Assembly (NCBI RefSeq): GCF_000150275.1 | Contig: NW_002060943.1 | Span: forward strand, 2,508,462 to 2,572,461 | From: Trichoplax adhaerens | Lineage: Eukaryota; Animalia; Placozoa | DNA length: 64,000 nt | Reading direction: 5' to 3' | Shown: positions 20,655-56,800 of the stretch, in pieces | Layout of the letters: each line of letters starts with the position of its first letter | Numbering within the stretch: position 1 is the stretch's first letter | Translations under genes and position numbers: made by a program | Notes under the pieces: generated by a model | The model's input: the letters and a program-made list of their open reading frames with translations, nothing else | Told to the model about the DNA's origin: nothing | The model's database searches: none

Positions 20655-23575
20655 ATGTTCCACAATCTAGCTGTCCCGACTCCATTTTATCATCATCCAG
20701 CCATATTTCATCCTCATTTGGCTCCATATCTACCACCACAACCGCAAGCCAACAATGTTCAAGGACTAATTTATAAATCGCAAGGACAAATGGATGGAAG
20801 CAATCACTGCATAGCAACAGCTGCCAACCACAATTCGAATAATATTGCTACTGCTGTCGCTGCTGCCGCTGCTGCTAATGTAGGTAATCAAATTGGTAGT
20901 AATGCAAGTGAGAATAACGCTTTAAAATTTGGCGTTAATGCTATTCTCTCCAGTCGTCTCAATCCAACTGGATTAGTGTGTAAGTAATCAAAGTCAAATT
21001 ATTTAGTTCTTTAAATTAATAAAAATTTAAGTGCACGATATAAGATGAAATGCAAGCGATCACGTATTAACTATAATAAATAACCTTATCATCCTATCAT
21101 TAAACTCGAACTACTTTCTGATCAACACGTAGTATTGTAGCAATAACCCAGCTACCTAGAGCGTAATTTCGTTCTTGATTGGCATCAATTTGATAACTAT
21201 TATTTAGATATAAAATAATTGTAGTTAGAGTACGATATCCCCTTAATCAACTAACAATAACACACTATATCACGATAAATCTTTCAATTCAAATTGAATT
21301 TCCTACCGTTGACCTTAATTTTAACTTTTTTTGTTTTGGACTTATAACAACTATACCTCAAAAAGATCCTCCATTGAATTCCAATGACAAATCATTCTAT
21401 CCACCCAACAGAACACTCTTAGCTGGCGTTACATCGCAATATCCTTATAATATTAAAGGACTAACAGGTAAGATCTTCATAGATCTTAGTAACTGTTCCT
21501 CTTATATATCACCATTATTATCAATAAGAAGAATAACAACAATAATAAACATTTTATTGTCTACTGACGGCATGGTGCCAACCAATTGGCACAAAGACTT
21601 TAACACACAAATAACATTTGATTAAATGTAACCGTATAATTGAAATGATTATATAATTATAGTATCGGTTTTTGCATTTTCATTATTATTTTGCATTATT
21701 CTTCCTTTAGAGGATTAACTACTTTTCCTATTTTTAATGATTTTAAAGCCAAGCTTAGAAGCTTTTTTTCTTTTATTACTGTATCATGTGTTGATGCCAC
21801 TAATGTTGCCAGATGCAGTACATAGTTGAAGGGGATGATGACATTATCGATAAAATCCTCCTCTTCCTTTAAATGCCATCAGTGACTAGCATGATTCAGT
21901 TTGATGACGCGAGCACATTGTGCCATAAACGAAAAAGAACGCTTCTCGCTTTATGATAAAAGAACTTTAAACTTAAAGTTTCTTTGTTCCTGTATAAAGT
22001 TGATGTATTTATCATTAAGTAATTAAAATGAGTGGTATCAACTATCTATCAACGTATAAAGCGACTTCTTAAGTGAATGAACGAAATAACAAATTTATTT
22101 TATTGTGGAAGATATGTAGAGATTATTTATTATTGATAAATTATTTCATAATTATATTATTATTTTACTGTTGACGATGTTGTTTGCCTTCTACTTTAAA
22201 GCGATAAAGATTAATTTCTTGTACTTAATTATGATGACTGTTTACAATGGAAAGATAGAATAATACCTTAAACTGTAATCGGTGGTAAATTGATAATGAA
22301 ATAGTAGTTTAATCTTTCATATTAAATAAGTATAATTTTAATTGTTGTCAAAATAACAAGACAGGAATAGAGATCTCGCATACAGTGTTCTAGAAATTTA
22401 GAACAATTGATCCATTATTACAATAGTATGTTAACGACGCTCGTTACAAATCACGTTACAGAAGAAAAATTTACTAATTAGTAACTGACAGTTAATGCTA
22501 TTACAATCTTACTAATGCGAACAGATTTATTAACAATCATTAAACAGAGAACAATTAATTGTTATTGCATATAGGATCAGCTCCATATTCTTCATACTCT
22601 TGGCCGATTACTCCACATGATGGCAGTAAGCAAAAAAGAACCATGCTAAGAAGAGCAGTTTTTACCGAGCAACAACGCAAAGGACTCGAGAAGCGATTTC
22701 AAGTTCAAAAATATATTTCGAAATCAGAGAGAAGGAAGCTCGCTACCAAGTTAAATCTGAAAGATTCTCAAGTTAAAATTTGGTTTCAGGTAATTAAAAT
22801 ACATATTATAGCCGCAGTATAACGCGCTAACGGTTGAATTCTATATTAATGTTTTCAGTAATAAGTTTGATAAGCTTAATAACTCCTATGCTTGAATGGT
22901 GCCCATGTCGTGATCGATACAATGTACACCGATCATAGTCTACGAAATATAATATTTAATGACATACTGTATGATCTTTCATCATGATATAATTAGTGCT
23001 GGGCCAACACTTTATAGCAACTATGAATGAAACGATAATTAATATTATGCGACTAATTGATAGTTCATCAGATTTGATATCTTGAAGAAAGTTTGTCTCC
23101 GTAAAGTGTTATCTTTTCTATTAACATTAATGATCAAGTTATTGATTAAGTAGCATTAATAAACGATGCTACTAAATAAATGGATAAAGCTGTTATTGTC
23201 AGTAGTTTCCGGACATTCTTAACTATTAGAGAAAGTCCATTGAAAATTTTAGAATTCTGTTGTAAAGTACTAATTAAAATTAGAGTAATAAATATTGAAT
23301 ATGGCTATAGTTTAGCTTGATTATATTCATTAGCTAATCTATTCTATTTTTGGATCATACAGAATCGCAGGATGAAATGGCGAAACTGCAAAGAAAGAGA
23401 AAAATCAATAATTTTAACAGATGATGGTAAAGCGGAACAATATACAAGCGACGATGACGATGATGATAGTTGCTACGAAATGAAGCCTACAAGTGAAGAT
23501 GAAACTTTTAACACAACTGGCAATAAGTCGGATCAGAGCGAAAGATCCAGCATAGGGGATGTTGACGACGTATAA
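20655..23575 (+). CDS. Dbx: Dbx (Dbx/Hlx, NK-like ANTP) homeobox transcription factor; exons 20655-20979, 21366-21467, 22575-22789, 23363-23575; 284 aa
   Basis: eh1 motif LKFGVNAILSS as in vertebrate Dbx; homeodomain MLRRAVFTEQQRKGLEKRFQVQKYISKSERRKLATKLNLKDSQVKIWFQ|NRRMKWRNCKERE. All three GT-AG introns join in consistent phases (1,1,0), 855 nt in total. Poly-Ala tract and acidic tail. Confidence 0.93.
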
Positions 23576-36170: not shown

Positions 36171-36199
36171 AGCACACCTGTAAAGTGTAGTACAATGGG

Positions 36200-36780
36200 A
36201 TTCTTAACGCATGTGCATTGTGTATTGTGCTACAGTATACAGTGCTGTATTACAGTACTGTATACTGTGCAGTGTGCACTGTACAGTACAGTACTGTACA
36301 CCATTACAAACCCAATTGTCACCCCCTGAGAGTACAGTATGTAATGTACTGTACACTGTACAGTACTGTACTGTCTGTACGTACTTACCGTCTGTACGTA
36401 CTGTACCACAAAAGAGAAAAAAAGAAAAAATAATGACCGCTCTGTTTTGTGCCGTATCATACAATATCTCATACTACGGTTCAGGTTTGATTGATATCAA
36501 AGCGGTTCAGGTTCTTCTATAGATCGCAACGGTCTGAACCGAACCCAACCGTTCTCAGGTCTACGGCATTATCTTTGTGCCGTATCATACTGCACAGTGT
36601 ACAGTGTACAGTACAAAGCGGTCCAAGAAAGAAGCCAAAAGGCCTTTCACAACTGTCCGGCCTACAGTACTCTCTACAGTACAGTACTGTACTATACACA
36701 TGGTCGAGAAAGGGGCACAGTACTCGTACTGTACCAGGTGTGCTGATGAAAGGACTACAGCAATGTACTGTACGTCAATG
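36200..36780. repeat. (TACAG/CTGTA)n-rich low-complexity region
   Basis: Dense mixed-orientation tacag/ctgta pentamers. These explain the overlapping spurious VQYCT/YSTV ORFs on both strands. Confidence 0.8.
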
Positions 36781-38352
36781 CGCTTTTTTTCGATTTCATT
36801 TTTCATTTAACTTGCTCTTGCAAGTTGCTCCAATTTTTTCTTCTAGGCGGTCAGTTTCGAAATCTACCGCTATTCTTTCAATTTCAAGGTGGTCAGTGAT
36901 AGTCAGCCACTGCGATATTCGTATTGGATACCAGCCTAATCGATTGATCACTCTAGGTAAGAAATGCTTGATATCACACTACAGTTTATAAATTGGATAG
37001 TTCTTGTTTGATTCACAACTTGATTCGTTTGCACTATCCATTCTTACTGACTGTCAGCAATAAAATGCTCCATTATGGATGCTGCGGTGCGGTTTCTTTT
37101 CGCTCTACTCTACCTATAGTGTGTAATACAGCATACTGCAGTAGAGCATCCATACATTATTTCACGACGTGCTTCGACAAATCATAATTTCATTGGATTG
37201 CCAAGTCACAATATCATCAACGTTCAATAGTGACAACTGATTGAATAGAGTTAGCTTGCCCTATTAACTCGATCACAGCCGTCTATGCGACATCATGTAC
37301 TACCATCATTTCAAAAGACACATCAAGTCGGCGCTCAGAAAATCATACCAAATACTGATCCAAATTGTACGATAGAAGACGCACATTTGTATAGTACAGT
37401 ACAGTACTGTACTTTTTGCAGGCATACTGACTCTCTCTTTGATTTCATGGGTCGATTTCTACCACAAATTATATTCTCATTGCTCTAATTTCTTTCTTTG
37501 TGGCATTACTGTACGGATAGGGTAACAGTTGACCCTTGATAAGCATGCAGTACAGTGTCCTTTGACTGTATAGGACATGATTGCTTGGTAGAGACTACTT
37601 GAACATCATTGAACTAGACTTTTTAATAGCGGAATTGGTTAAAAAATGAAATTGAATGATGGAACATCCTTGATTGATACCTTGCTAGAAAAAGATTTTT
37701 TTGACAATGGGATTGTATAGCGCTGATCGACTGTATTGTACACTGTACAGTACTACGGATGTCTCAATGAGTCCATTTTTTTAACAGTGTCGGATAGTAT
37801 ACGATACGGTACGGTACAGTACTGGACTGACTCAAGAAAACTATGGGGAAAAAAAAAATGGATGCTACTTTGGATACTGCGTAACTGCACTAACAGTGAT
37901 GGAGTTTTCCTGCATTCATTTCAGTGTAGCGCATCATGCTCATCCCTTTTAATTTCTTACCATTTGAAACATTTCTATGGTGTCAAGTAAATGCATAACT
38001 AGTGAAATACTCGTAGAAACTGGTAAAACGTAATTACAGATTAAAAGTCCGCCAGTTTTTTTCGTTGGTATGTACTGTACAGTATTATCCTTTGTATGGG
38101 CCATTTTTTTGAGGGGGGGGGGATTGGGAAGGTGATACTTTCAACTGATCATCGCCACTAATTGTAATGAATAAGAATGATTCTGATTTGCTTGTGTGTT
38201 GATATCCAGTCATTGGGCTGCTACAACATTGGTTGCTGATATACTATTTCATTAATATGCTATTATGTTTTCATTGCTTTCAATCGTAGCCATCACAATC
38301 GACCAGAATTGCCTCATCAAGGTAGTTCTTGACTTAATTTTTGCTAGCGAAA

Positions 38353-41300
38353 GTGGAACGTCGTAGAAACCCTAATCTCCATCTCAGTGCAAGAAAGGAG
38401 GGCTCACCCGAGCTGCAGCCGCAAGGCGCAGCTCAAGGTAATACATCACGCGTTGCTCCGTTTCCTATTAGCAACCATGGATGGGTACCTCCAAGCACTA
38501 GAGGTCGTCGAGTGGAACAACCCGTGCTCGATGTAAATTTGATACGCAGACGCATTCAGGGGTATAGCCTTATTTCAATTTGCTTTTAAAGATTAATTAG
38601 TTATTTACTATGTTAAACGCAAAATAATAATATTCACCTTCCAACTTATGATTCCGATAGTATTCTGAATAAGCTTACCCCCGACAATTTCGATCGACTG
38701 GCCAACCAATTAGTTCATGTCGGGATTAAGAATAAAGAGATTTTAAGTATCGTCATCAAGCTTGTAAGTCGCATCGTCGCAATCTGACTTGTGTTACTGT
38801 TTCTCTCGATATGTTATATTGATTTGAAATAGATCTTTGATTTAATTATGATAATAATATTGTATTTTAGATCTATGATAAAGCAACATCAGAAACTAAA
38901 TATTGCTCCCTGTATGCAAGGCTATGTGGCAGATTATCAGAAGATGCACCGAAATTCGACGAGAAGTCCGATTCCAATGTAAAACTGTTGCGTTTCTTAT
39001 TTAACCTTTGATCGTGACGTACTGTAGATCTAATTTATAAACGTTATTCCATAGTCATTCCGCAAGCTTCTTCTACATATCTGCGAGAATGAATTCCATA
39101 GCAGAACGAAAGCCAGTTCTGGTCAGTATAACTATCTAACCAGTCGTTGTTATATTGATTGCAATTGAAACCATTCACTTACAACAATATCTTTCATTGG
39201 TATAGCCTTTGACAGTATGGCAGGCGACTTGACAGCGGAAGAAGAAGAGGCCAGAACGCTTGCTAAGAGGCGTGTACTGGGTAACATCAAATTTATCGGT
39301 AATTGTATAGATTGCATCAATTAAAGCGTAAAATATTTAAAAGATGCTGCTGTTGATATCACTATTTACAATATTTACTTACATCAACAGGTGAACTTGG
39401 GAAGTTAAAGATTTTAGATAATAAGATTCTCTATGATTGTATTAAAATGGTAAAATCAGCAATTTGGATAAAAACGTCTTTATATTATTTTGCAAAGCTA
39501 ACACTTGTGTTTAACGTTGTAGTTGGTTGTGAAGGGAAAGCCAGACCTAGTTGAATTAAGTGAACAGTTGGAATGTTTATGCGAATTAATGAAAACTTGT
39601 GGGCGACAAATTGACACAGATAAAGCTTCGGTGTGTGTCATTCATTACAAGTCTTTAGGCTTTCTAGTAACACCAAGATACTAAATTCATTTTTTATTCA
39701 CAGGATTGGATGGATGACTGCTTCAAATACATGGAGAAAAAAATGAAAAATAAAAAGTTACCACCCAGAACAAGATTTATGCTGCAAAATATTATTGAAG
39801 TTAGACAGAACAAGGTACTTAAGAGTGCATAATGTTTATGGGATTATTGGCCATTAATTCCTAATTCTAATAATTGCATTCAATTGTAGTGGGTTCCCCG
39901 TAAATGTATGACAGAAAATGGCCCCAAAAGTATCAGTGAAATTAGACAAGAAGCAGGAATGAGAGTATGACTATTGTTTATACGAGTAGATGTATTTTGT
40001 GTTTGATAGCGTGATAGATGTATTTTGTGTTTGATAGCGACAAGTAGTCTTTTATTCCATGATCGTGTAGTTAACGTAATCGACAAGAACAGATCACGTA
40101 GTAATAGAAGCAAAGTATTTGTAGCGCTATTAATAATCCTATTTTAAAAGATTTCAATTTAGCTTCACGATAACGTATTACTATATTCGTATACAAAATT
40201 TAACAGCCATCTAGGATACTCCAAAAGGGCCTACACGATGGTCGAGAAAGTAGGCCACAGCCTGACATTTTTAGTCAGAGAAGGACGGATTTTGATCCAT
40301 ATTTCCATATGCATGAGATATATTTCCGTCGTGATCCCGGTCATGGAAATCATGATATTAGTAACATGATGCAAAATCCAAGATTTCATCCATCTGTTGG
40401 TACGGTGTTGATATTGATGTAATGAAACCGTGCTTTAATTACTCATTCAAGTCTTCAAATTTTATGCTTTTAGTCGCAGAAAATTTTTATATGGACCCAT
40501 CCTATCCTGGAGGATTCCCACCGTTTAACAATCCTATGGCTAATCACAATCACAATGCTTTCATGAATGCTCAAAAGCAGAATCAACTACACCGTCCACC
40601 ACAACCTCAAAGTATGTTAATTACAATTAGTTTAAAACTATTACCCTTACTTATTCTTACATGATTTGACGACTTTTTGCGGTATTGTATCTGAAAATTT
40701 TTTTATTATATTACAAAACCAATCTTGACAGTTACTCTTGTTTCCGCAGATGATATTCGCCCTTCGAAACCTCTCCAGAAAGAATTCCGTCTTGAGAATG
40801 ACGCTAACGTATGTACAGGCAGTATTTCGGTGTATATACATAAAACAACGTTCGATATATTGGTTGCATTCTTACGAATAAATATTTATGTTTATAGATT
40901 AGCCTACGTCCTTCAGATAATTCTATGTTGGTGTCACTGGCATCATCGCAGAAAAATCAACGCAAAACCGCTACACAACCAAATAAAGTGGTAACATATA
41001 AGGAAAATTATATGATTACTCACTTCTAGTTCACGAACTATTTATTTAGTCTTTCCTCGATAATTTTGAAATTGATTTCTACTCGTTTCTATGCATAACT
41101 GATAGGGGCCGCTGATTAGTTTAAGTAAATTGAATTTGACCCCAGAGAAGCCTCGATCCAAAAAAAGTGGCAAATCAGCAGTATTAAGCAGAGAGGACTA
41201 TCGCAACAAAGTGGTAATTAACAAAGATTCTGTCGCTTTATGGCCTATTTCCTTGTGTAGCTACAATTTTTTTATGTATTTGTGGTATAGGAATCATGTC

Positions 41301-43578
41301 TAAATGATGAAGCGCTCAACACAGAAGCAAATCTTACCGAGGCGCTAAAAGATTTTCACATAGCGCAGTGAGTTATCTATTGATTGATAATTGAATATTT
41401 TAGATGCAATTGATACAACTAAGAAAATTTTACACTGCATGTGACATTAGATACATCGATTTGTTAATATCCTGTATTCTCGAGTATGGTCGAGATAAAG
41501 ACGGTAAATATACTTCATTGTTATACTGGTTACCTATGTTTATGATATTTGTTGGATACTATAACAATTATCTCAAATTTTTTGCATAGTGGCTGAGCGT
41601 AAGCGACTTATGCAATTAGTCGTTCATTTATCTAATGAAGGCTTAATTTCCAAAGAAGATTTCTTCAAAGTAATAGTTTAGCATAAGAATTACGCTGTGT
41701 ACTTTAAGTACTCCAATTTGCTAACATGTAATTTATGAATGATAGGCAATTAAACAATATTTACAAAATATTCAAAAGAATGATGACGAAGCAAATACAG
41801 TCAAGGATAGCGCAGCTGACTATATTGGAGAACTTATGTTTTTAGTAAGTTTTCTAACTTGATATTTTATGCGATTTAACGAAGAATTGTTGTTGTATCT
41901 ATATTAATGTTATTTTTCCCGGCTTGTAGAAGTGGCTTGGAACATCTGAGAGCTTAAAACAAATCGCTGAAATCACTCATGTTTCGTTTGTTATCGCCAT
42001 TTTCAAATGGTTGGAGCGCCGAGTGAACAAGGTACATGTATATTTGATCATTTTGATCTTGCATGGTTAATTACTTACAATGATTTTACTATTTGCAGGA
42101 TTACGTGGTGGAAATCTATGAAGACTCTAAAATTGACCTCCTATTGCTGATACCCGGTTTGTAATTATCATATTTAGAGGGGGATTAAAATAATATCTTA
42201 GATATTTAATGTTATACTAATATATGCAGATCCAGATAATCGAACTATGGATCATCTAATGGAGCTGTTACAAGAAAAGGTAATACAGGCAAAAATTTTT
42301 TTGTTAGATTGTATCAATATTGATCATCCTGACTTATATTAATTTTGGTTGTACTTGCATTGTAGGATCTCGGATATTTGTATCCTTTGCAAAAAGTAGA
42401 GATGGAACTTCTCCAAAAGATCCGAGAAGATCCGAATTCAACTGTTGTCTTTAGGTGGATCAAGGTACGATCACATTACTAAACTGCATCATGTAGCTTT
42501 AAAGTTTAATTCAGGAGGGAAAACTTGTTCCCAAATGCGGGTTCTACGTGATTGTAAACAGAATTATAATATTTAGAAAGTTCGAAATGGTATTGTCTTT
42601 ACTTTGTAAAATTAAAATATCTTTAATTTAAATTTTACCTCAAGACGCTATTTTATTTTTAACTGAATGCGTTTTTTACTACAGCAAACCGTTGACCCTA
42701 GTCTCTACACAAGTGATGATTTCGTGCTCGGTTTATCAACGTGGTAAAACATCATATCAATCTTTATTCAGTAACCTTCAATTAGCGATTAACTAAATTG
42801 GGCCATGCTTGCTTACATTGTTTTTTAGCATATTGAAATACGTAACTGAAAACAGCACCTTGCCGAAAAATTATGATAAATCTGTTCAACCAGAGAAACC
42901 TTTGGTAGAGAAGGAGAAGGAACTTATGCAAGGACTTAAGGTAGTATGATTGTAATGGAACATTTTATGACTTGAATACGGAAAGTATTCAAGTGTATTA
43001 TGTTTTACGAAAACTTGATGCTTAAATTGTTTCATCTGTCTCAATATATTTTAGGGCTTATTGCATCAATTTGTACATGACAAGATCAATTTGCAGGTTG
43101 GATAAATAAATTGTAATATACGGAAGGAGCGAGCATAGTAATGATATACATAAAATGTTATCTTATTTTAGATGATTGTCATCTATGCTCTGCAAGTATT
43201 TTGTTACTCGCGTACATTCCCAAAAGGTAAGCTAAAGTCTAAATTGACTGATGGATGTATTTAATGTAATACTTACACAATAGCTGTTGATCACAGTTAT
43301 GTAATATACGTACTTCTATTAGATCTTATGCAGAGGATGTTCAACATTCTATATGAGGAAGAATTATGCGAGGAAGAAGCCTTTCTGAAATGGAAAGAAG
43401 ACCTTAACGATAAGTACCCTGGCAAAGGAGAGGCTCTATTTAAAGTAAGTACTGGATGAAAATTATGTACAGAATGAAAATATTTTTGTAAGCAAAATTC
43501 TCTTTACGATAGGTAAATCAATGGTTGACATGGCTAGAGACTGCCGAGTCAGAAGATAGCGCATCGGATTCCGATTGA
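38353..43578 (+). CDS. EIF4G2: Eukaryotic translation initiation factor 4 gamma 2 (NAT1/DAP5/p97); about 28 coding exons; probable GTG start at 38353
   Basis: Exons 38353-38561, 38661-38763, 38871-38978, 39055-39121, 39206-39298, 39391-39449, 39523-39630, 39704-39814 and 39890-39964 give the MIF4G domain: WVPPST...RIQGILNKLTPDNFDRL, LYARLCGRLSEDAPKFD, LGNIKFIGELGKL, RFMLQ..WVPRK..NGPKSI. ISLRP at 40898, MA3 exons at 41.3-42.3 kb, and a W2 end EEEAFLKWKED..PGKGEALFKVNQWLTWLETAESE to TGA at 43576-43578. No N-terminal eIF4E-binding extension. Confidence 0.95.
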
Positions 43579-56400: not shown

Positions 56401-56800
56401 AAAACAGAAGTATAAGTAATTCCCGAGGTTTCGTGTATTGATTTAAATATTAAGCAACGAATAGACCAGCAGATTTGCTATGATGTTATAATTGGTTACT
56501 GCTTACTAGCTCGTCTAGTCACTATTCTTTCCCAATTAGCATTCCTATCAATTAAAAATTTACATTTCACCAAGTTTGATCCTATTCTATTTATTATCTT
56601 AGGATATATACTACCAGCAGTAATCGCATTGATAACATCTATATTGCGTGAAATAATTAGTTAAATGAAAATTTGGGGATCCATTTTGACTAAATTATGA
56701 GTTTAACCATAGCAAACTATTAGAATTGCAGTAGTTTTCCATTTATATACTTGATTTACCTACTTTCATTCATCCTAATACTGTTAGCTCGCGTTGAGTA
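53500..56800 (-). mobile_element. Degenerate LINE fossil (endonuclease and RT remnants, RTE/CR1-like); boundaries approximate
   Basis: Minus strand reads IIPMRK (55555-55538), NCPLSLLDLSIKL (55515-55477), ENGF then DKI..KQ (from 55419), FIAVKN (about 55311), CLFNL (about 55077), LTISNSK (about 54895) and FVYAVNWTL in ORF 54445-54672 (cf. LLYGxETWTL). Confidence 0.55.

Follow-up and report, generated by a model that had tools for sequence, protein, structure and literature searches.

Where does translation of eIF4G2 start in the placozoan Trichoplax adhaerens, if the reading frame that encodes its conserved WVPPST motif has no ATG ahead of that motif? We followed this question in 64,000 nucleotides (nt) of the T. 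adhaerens assembly GCF_000150275.1 (contig NW_002060943.1, positions 2,508,462 to 2,572,461 of the forward strand; hereafter the window, in whose own coordinates all positions are given). We are highly confident that Trichoplax eIF4G2 initiates at a non-AUG codon, and we predict that translation very probably begins mainly at the GUG at 38353, in which case the full protein is most likely roughly 865 residues long.

Sequence comparison identifies the gene as T. adhaerens eIF4G2 (NAT1/DAP5/p97; TRIADDRAFT_63472), in agreement with a sequence-only reading that had taken the locus for eIF4G2/NAT1 of a probable early-branching animal. TRIADDRAFT_63472 matches exon 2 at 99% identity, and its cluster includes a Trichoplax sp. 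H2 record. The top PDB matches are the MIF4G (E 9e-67) and MA3-W2 (PDB 3l6a, E 2e-63) regions of human eIF4G2, ahead of eIF4G1, and the Pfam domain order in P0001 is MIF4G (PF02854; 103-323), MA3 (572-641; 21.9 bits, slightly below the cut-off of 23.2) and W2 (818-893). Two trees both group the gene with eIF4G2 and not with eIF4G1/3: in a MIF4G tree of 102 rows, with only four fish rows as outgroup, it falls inside the eIF4G2 clade with support 100/100, and in a MIF4G+W2 tree built quickly with a simpler model (62 rows, 13 of them eIF4G1-like) the Shimodaira-Hasegawa-like approximate likelihood ratio support is 99. Moreover, the W2 position of human E862 (numbering derived from the chain length of 3l6a) is Glu in Trichoplax and Lys in the eIF4G1 chain 6zmw_g, a Glu (eIF4G2) versus Lys (eIF4G1) difference that is named in PMC9945437. 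Finally, if begun at the GUG, the N-terminus has 70 residues ahead of the ILNKL motif and not a single Tyr, that is, no eIF4E- or PABP-binding region.

The structure of the mRNA was taken from RNA contigs of public Trichoplax runs, of which 8 out of the 21 listed were used. Spliced contigs came from six of the eight (X5, X7, X10, X13, X16 and X18); X4 and X11, with no eIF4G2 splice joints and with introns covered, were taken as DNA-like and excluded from RNA support. Exon 1 is joined to 38290 in five of the six spliced runs, from five studies, the joint being listed as 36953>38287 (GT..AG, cut +3) for X13, X16 and X18 and read from contig coordinates or continuity for X5 and X10, while the X7 contig continues unspliced through intron 1 from 37144 and thus retains the in-frame stop. 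The letters alone had suggested an acceptor at 38347 for an upstream exon, with a donor at 38067/38068; the RNA contigs use acceptor 38289 and donor 36956 instead, and the donor 38067/38068 appears in no listed RNA joint. Since acceptor 38289 is used, the TAA at 38335, which had been noted as an in-frame upstream stop, sits inside the spliced mRNA. The leader given by the RNA-defined exons is 221 nt long and has no ATG in any frame, and for exon 2 no letter is listed in which the RNA contigs differ from the window. In the spliced mRNA the conserved core is therefore preceded by an in-frame stop and by no in-frame AUG, and the observation that the WVPPST frame lacks an ATG until 39217 holds, this being codon 167 of the spliced frame. 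The AUG-free leader and the in-frame stop together make the GUG at 38353 the most likely start. The contig 5' ends are at 36799 for X5, X10 (by arithmetic) and X13 (which carries loose letters that look like adapter) and otherwise at 36823 and 36826; contigs cannot show starts, and we take these ends as a weak hint of where transcription begins.

An AUG could still be supplied by an isoform starting before 36746, with its exon 1 spliced into the acceptor at 38347, which is shared by both public gene models. In favour of such an isoform, and against a GUG start, the haplotype of the window is open in that frame from 36491 through exon 1, including an ATG at 36746, and contigs lose rare isoforms, so that a minor splice into 38348 could escape the joints listed. 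The extension frame of exon 1 also encodes YQPNRLI (around 36929-36949), which has the YxxxxL-I pattern of eIF4E-binding motifs; this resemblance is plausibly due to chance, in a frame without RNA support. We nevertheless regard the AUG isoform as very improbable. A splice of an ATG-bearing exon into 38348, which the sequence-only reading had named as evidence to the contrary, was looked for in the RNA, and none of the joints listed in the six spliced runs enters 38348; the contig 5' ends (36799-36826) fall downstream of the ATG at 36746; and six of the eight runs carry a 2-base insertion behind 36900, which alters the frame so that it lacks a Met beyond the last stop. X16, without the insertion, splices to 38290 anyway. 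Furthermore, both public models (TRIADDRAFT_63472 and RDD42864) splice into 38348 yet pick different ATG exons, each of which lies upstream of the RNA 5' ends, and their frames differ because of the same insertion. An AUG start of this kind would require a start and an acceptor that were not seen, in addition to one particular haplotype. The insertion itself, absent from X16 and in a part where X7 has no coverage, may be a strain difference or an assembly slip. Dispersed low-complexity tacag/tgtac repeats at 36180-36700 and 37390-37820 attract many unrelated contigs, and the unsupported ATG exons of both models are found at the margins of the first of them. RNA and TRIADDRAFT_63472 also differ further downstream, at the exon 41291-41367 (joined to 41451) and at acceptor 40750. 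A second contig of X16, of 4230 nt with loose ends at 38480 and 38694, represents another eIF4G2-like transcript, probably from another organism.

Within the stretch that follows the stop, the GTG at 38353 is in frame (within gcgaaaGTGgaa), and so is the TTG at 38341, which is in frame with WVPPST and follows the TAA at 38335; both had been picked out from the letters and stand on the window sequence. The 11-base pattern GCNAAASTGGA, which covers the GTG and its flanks, has a single match in the 64 kb window (38347-38357), against 0.19 expected by shuffling, and the chance of finding GCNAAAGTGGA among the approximately 50 in-frame sites is 2e-5 to 6e-5, for a pattern chosen after the sequences were known. 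The GC content of exon 2 is 0.40 ahead of the GTG and 0.53 after it. Initiation could alternatively be non-AUG and take place mainly at another near-cognate codon (TTG 38341, AAG 38395, CTG 38413 or ATT 38467), or at several: all four lie in frame ahead of the W motif, CTG 38413 carries a purine at -3, and the N-terminal stretch is poorly conserved, so that protein constraint does not dictate how long it is. We consider this unlikely, although less so than an AUG isoform, because among the GTG, CTG, TTG and ATT candidates GTG 38353 alone combines a purine at -3 with G+4 and alone matches the context of the vertebrate and hydrozoan transcripts described below; TTG 38341 has T-3 and C+4, and the rise in GC content coincides with GTG 38353.

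The least probable of the alternatives, which we hardly credit, is a start at the ATG at 39217, giving a protein without the N-terminal half of MIF4G. In its favour, no in-frame AUG precedes this one, which has A-3 and G+4; however, such a start would lose approximately 100 of the 221 MIF4G residues, which align well with human eIF4G2, together with the W motif, and this ATG lies behind nine out-of-frame AUGs, the first of them in strong context. The features that bear on the predicted GUG start are collected in Table 1.

Table 1. Features of the Trichoplax eIF4G2 locus in window coordinates
Feature	Position	Strand	Evidence or remark
ATG exon of the RDD42864 model (Trichoplax sp. H2)	36433..36516	+	differs from that of TRIADDRAFT_63472; no RNA joint seen
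ATG exon of the TRIADDRAFT_63472 model	36700..36738	+	upstream of RNA 5' ends; no RNA joint seen
Exon 1, non-coding, no ATG	36799..36956	+	X5, X13, X16, X18; X10 by coordinates
Intron 1, 1333 nt, GT..AG, donor 36956, acceptor 38289	36957..38289	+	RNA joints
Exon 2, final 63 nt of leader and first 70 codons	38290..38561	+	
In-frame TAA within spliced leader	38335..38337	+	blocks any upstream AUG
Acceptor-like site used by both public models	38338..38347	+	absent from listed RNA joints
Start context GCGAAA-GTG-GA (G-6, C-5, A-3, G+4, A+5), candidate start GTG 38353-38355	38347..38357	+	
Local GC-rich hairpin, 57 nt past GUG	38410..38434	+	-21 kcal/mol, 36-nt window chosen post hoc
First AUG of mRNA, out of frame, accATGg, 19-codon open reading frame (ORF)	38477..38536	+	likely trap for ribosomes missing GUG
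Conserved WVPPST motif, codons 44-49	38482..38499	+	upstream of any in-frame ATG
MIF4G domain, approximate ends, codons 66-286, over exons 2-9	38548..39814	+	Pfam PF02854 at P0001 103-323 and RNA joints
First in-frame ATG, codon 167, about 100 residues into MIF4G, A-3, G+4	39217..39219	+	
Last coding exon and stop codon, end of W2 domain	43513..43578	+	tblastn and translation

A downstream hairpin was also considered as a common helper of initiation and rejected, with z between -1.6 and +1.4 over the first 100 coding nt of seven transcripts; the Trichoplax hairpin at 38410-38434 (z -1.4 over the same length) is not kept in hydrozoans. Apart from eIF4G2, Pfam matches among 28 ORFs scanned in the window were to a rhodopsin-family G protein-coupled receptor (1513-2409), a homeodomain exon (22559-22822) and, weakly, TMEM170 (56416-56664).

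Starts of eIF4G2 in other animals were compared by an alignment-based scan that gave 79 loci, mostly transcripts (a metagenome scan with P0001 alone as query gave no loci). After removal of 10 loci without the start of MIF4G and 13 without an upstream stop or W motif or with a short or genomic frame, 56 loci with an upstream in-frame stop, the W motif and a long frame were usable. In 46 of these (42 distinct) the frame from the upstream stop to the W motif contains no Met; approximately 16 of 56 would be expected to be Met-free at 2.2% Met per codon, with the reservation that the loci are related and not independent. The vertebrate-clade transcript L011 reads GCCAAA-GTG-GA, which bears out the earlier proposal that the Trichoplax GUG stands in a vertebrate-like AAA-GUG-GA context, and at the matching place protein models have AAKVE in fish and D/NKVE in echinoderms. 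Nine loci (eight distinct) cluster with Clytia and Hydractinia (100/99), L007 being identical to Clytia over MIF4G; of eight such hydrozoan transcripts six have GCTAAA-CTG-GA in frame, one GCTAAG-CTG-GA and one GCAGCA-CTG-GA, with G-6 in all eight and C-7 in seven. The pattern GCNAAASTGGA is present in 8 of the 79 loci (seven of the Clytia/Hydractinia clade, one of the vertebrate clade), once in each, on the coding strand and near the 5' end, compared to 1.4 expected at random anywhere, and the six distinct sites that were checked are all in frame and follow an in-frame stop. When 11 5' ends were aligned the invariant columns were TGGA, i.e., part of the codon and its +4/+5 bases. Moreover, all arthropod-clade transcripts examined (13/13 and 16/16; L006-L077) have an in-frame ACG with A-3 and G+4, and the three lophotrochozoan-clade transcripts (L001, L002 and L028) have a CTG near the start of the frame, which makes ACG the candidate start codon of the arthropod clades and CUG that of lophotrochozoans and, as above, hydrozoans. 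Among cnidarian records, four RefSeq proteins of Acropora and that of Hydractinia start within MIF4G, and that of Clytia starts beyond the W motif.

Several observations weigh against the GUG start and its conservation. In Trichoplax C-7 and the GCC repeat are missing, the 44 codons from the GUG to the W motif are not conserved relative to other phyla, one placozoan genus was compared, and Trichoplax is a long branch (1.95) in the 102-row MIF4G tree. Ten of the 56 loci do have an in-frame Met ahead of the W motif: the hydrozoan L014 has one at codon 20 after its CUG, with C-3, and the chelicerate-clade loci L062 (489-491) and L078 (476-478) have an ATG with C at -3 ten codons before WVPPS. Furthermore, the start patterns of the individual groups (ACG, CTG) were picked after looking. 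The two chelicerate-clade loci possibly represent a return to a weak AUG start and, if so, an exception to the rule that no eIF4G2 uses AUG. In L078 no near-cognate codon in purine context lies upstream of the ATG.

How old is the non-AUG start? The sequence-only reading had put it before the bilaterians, and the hydrozoan CUG transcripts with the same context support that the predicted non-AUG start of eIF4G2 is older than Bilateria. Since hydrozoans keep the context with a CUG, we infer that the ancestor shared by placozoans, cnidarians and bilaterians already had this arrangement. Orthologues of eIF4G2 were also found in Capsaspora, Pigoraptor, Chromosphaera and two choanoflagellates, and these five holozoan protein records, which are annotation-level and come without DNA, all begin with a Met that lies ahead of MIF4G and, in three of them, also ahead of a W motif; an AUG start is thereby suggested for unicellular holozoans. 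The Chromosphaera and Pigoraptor records (P0195 and P0196) open with MVE and MVQ, a Val after Met reminiscent of the animal V-E, which we note as a protein-level curiosity. Among the best 120 matches to the deep-branching protein P0190 there was no named sponge or ctenophore orthologue. A tentative reading, to which we give somewhat less than even chances, is that loss of the AUG in eIF4G2 was a founding animal innovation, the context GC-N-AAA-(G/C)UG-GA having been fixed before placozoans, cnidarians and bilaterians split and perhaps in all animals. As part of this reading, the weak start would couple the level of eIF4G2 to start-codon stringency, and the core of the "mammalian" NAT1 motif would be an ancient element around a codon that was later swapped (GUG, CUG, ACG) and stayed non-AUG.

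With respect to mechanism, we propose that ribosomes scan the leader and that a fraction would initiate at GUG 38353, aided by G-6, A-3, G+4 and a non-G at +5. In human NAT1, G-6 and C-7 are the most critical for GUG initiation and G+5 is inhibitory (PMC13754004). Ribosomes that miss the GUG would be captured by nine out-of-frame AUGs, beginning with the one at 38477 in strong context, and as a result no truncated protein would be made from 39217. Out-of-frame AUGs have been used to explain how EIF4G2 can rely on a single, non-AUG start codon (PMC3105428), and capture of leaky ribosomes in this way has been proposed for other genes (PMC5714202). By analogy to human NAT1, the output of which increases with eIF5 and decreases with eIF1 or 5MP (PMC5714202), eIF4G2 output in Trichoplax would track start-codon stringency (eIF1, eIF5, 5MP). 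BZW/5MP homologues are widespread among eukaryotes (PMC5823381).

The closest known system is vertebrate EIF4G2, where GUG is the sole start: the protein is orthologous, the Trichoplax GUG shares G-6, C-5, AAA, G+4 and A+5 with L011, and out-of-frame AUGs would shield the first in-frame AUG as described for EIF4G2 (PMC3105428). The differences are that Trichoplax is non-bilaterian, that it lacks the GCCGCC repeat and C-7, that its start is predicted from sequence, and that its leader has no AUG, unlike the human NAT1 leader with its upstream AUG ORF (PMC5714202). Relative to the mammalian NAT1 motif GCCGCC(A/G)NNXXXG (PMC13754004), Trichoplax has G-6, a purine at -3, G+4 and a non-G at +5, and most hydrozoans have C-7 and G-6; the full GCCGCC at -9 to -4 is absent from Trichoplax, which reads ctagcgaaa at -9 to -1 and keeps G-6 and C-5 but not C-7 and C-4. 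Trichoplax thus retains the 3' half only, of a motif whose enhancer effect is known from mammals. NAT1 of Drosophila and the ascidian Halocynthia likewise has no AUG start according to reviews citing Takahashi 2005 (PMC9977666, PMC9945437 and PMC6573783); these papers call the invertebrate site unassignable, whereas in Trichoplax the shared context singles out one codon. Non-AUG initiation of eIF4G2 was already known in bilaterians, and no eIF4G2 mRNA was known to use AUG according to a 2019 paper; our literature search, from which subscription journals were mostly missing and in which supplements were unread, gave no report of a non-AUG eIF4G2 start in placozoans or cnidarians, and one paper that it returned brings up Trichoplax solely in connection with PRRC2.

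If true, our findings extend a well-known obligate non-AUG start from bilaterians to Placozoa and Cnidaria with little change in its flanking bases, an indication that selection for a weak, adjustable start on a translation factor is very old. Candidate start codons are named for invertebrate groups where the literature says that none is assignable, and the 3' half of an enhancer context called mammalian is suggested to be older. The N-termini of two Trichoplax protein records, which lack RNA support, would be corrected, and a non-AUG start would account for the truncated coral and hydrozoan records.

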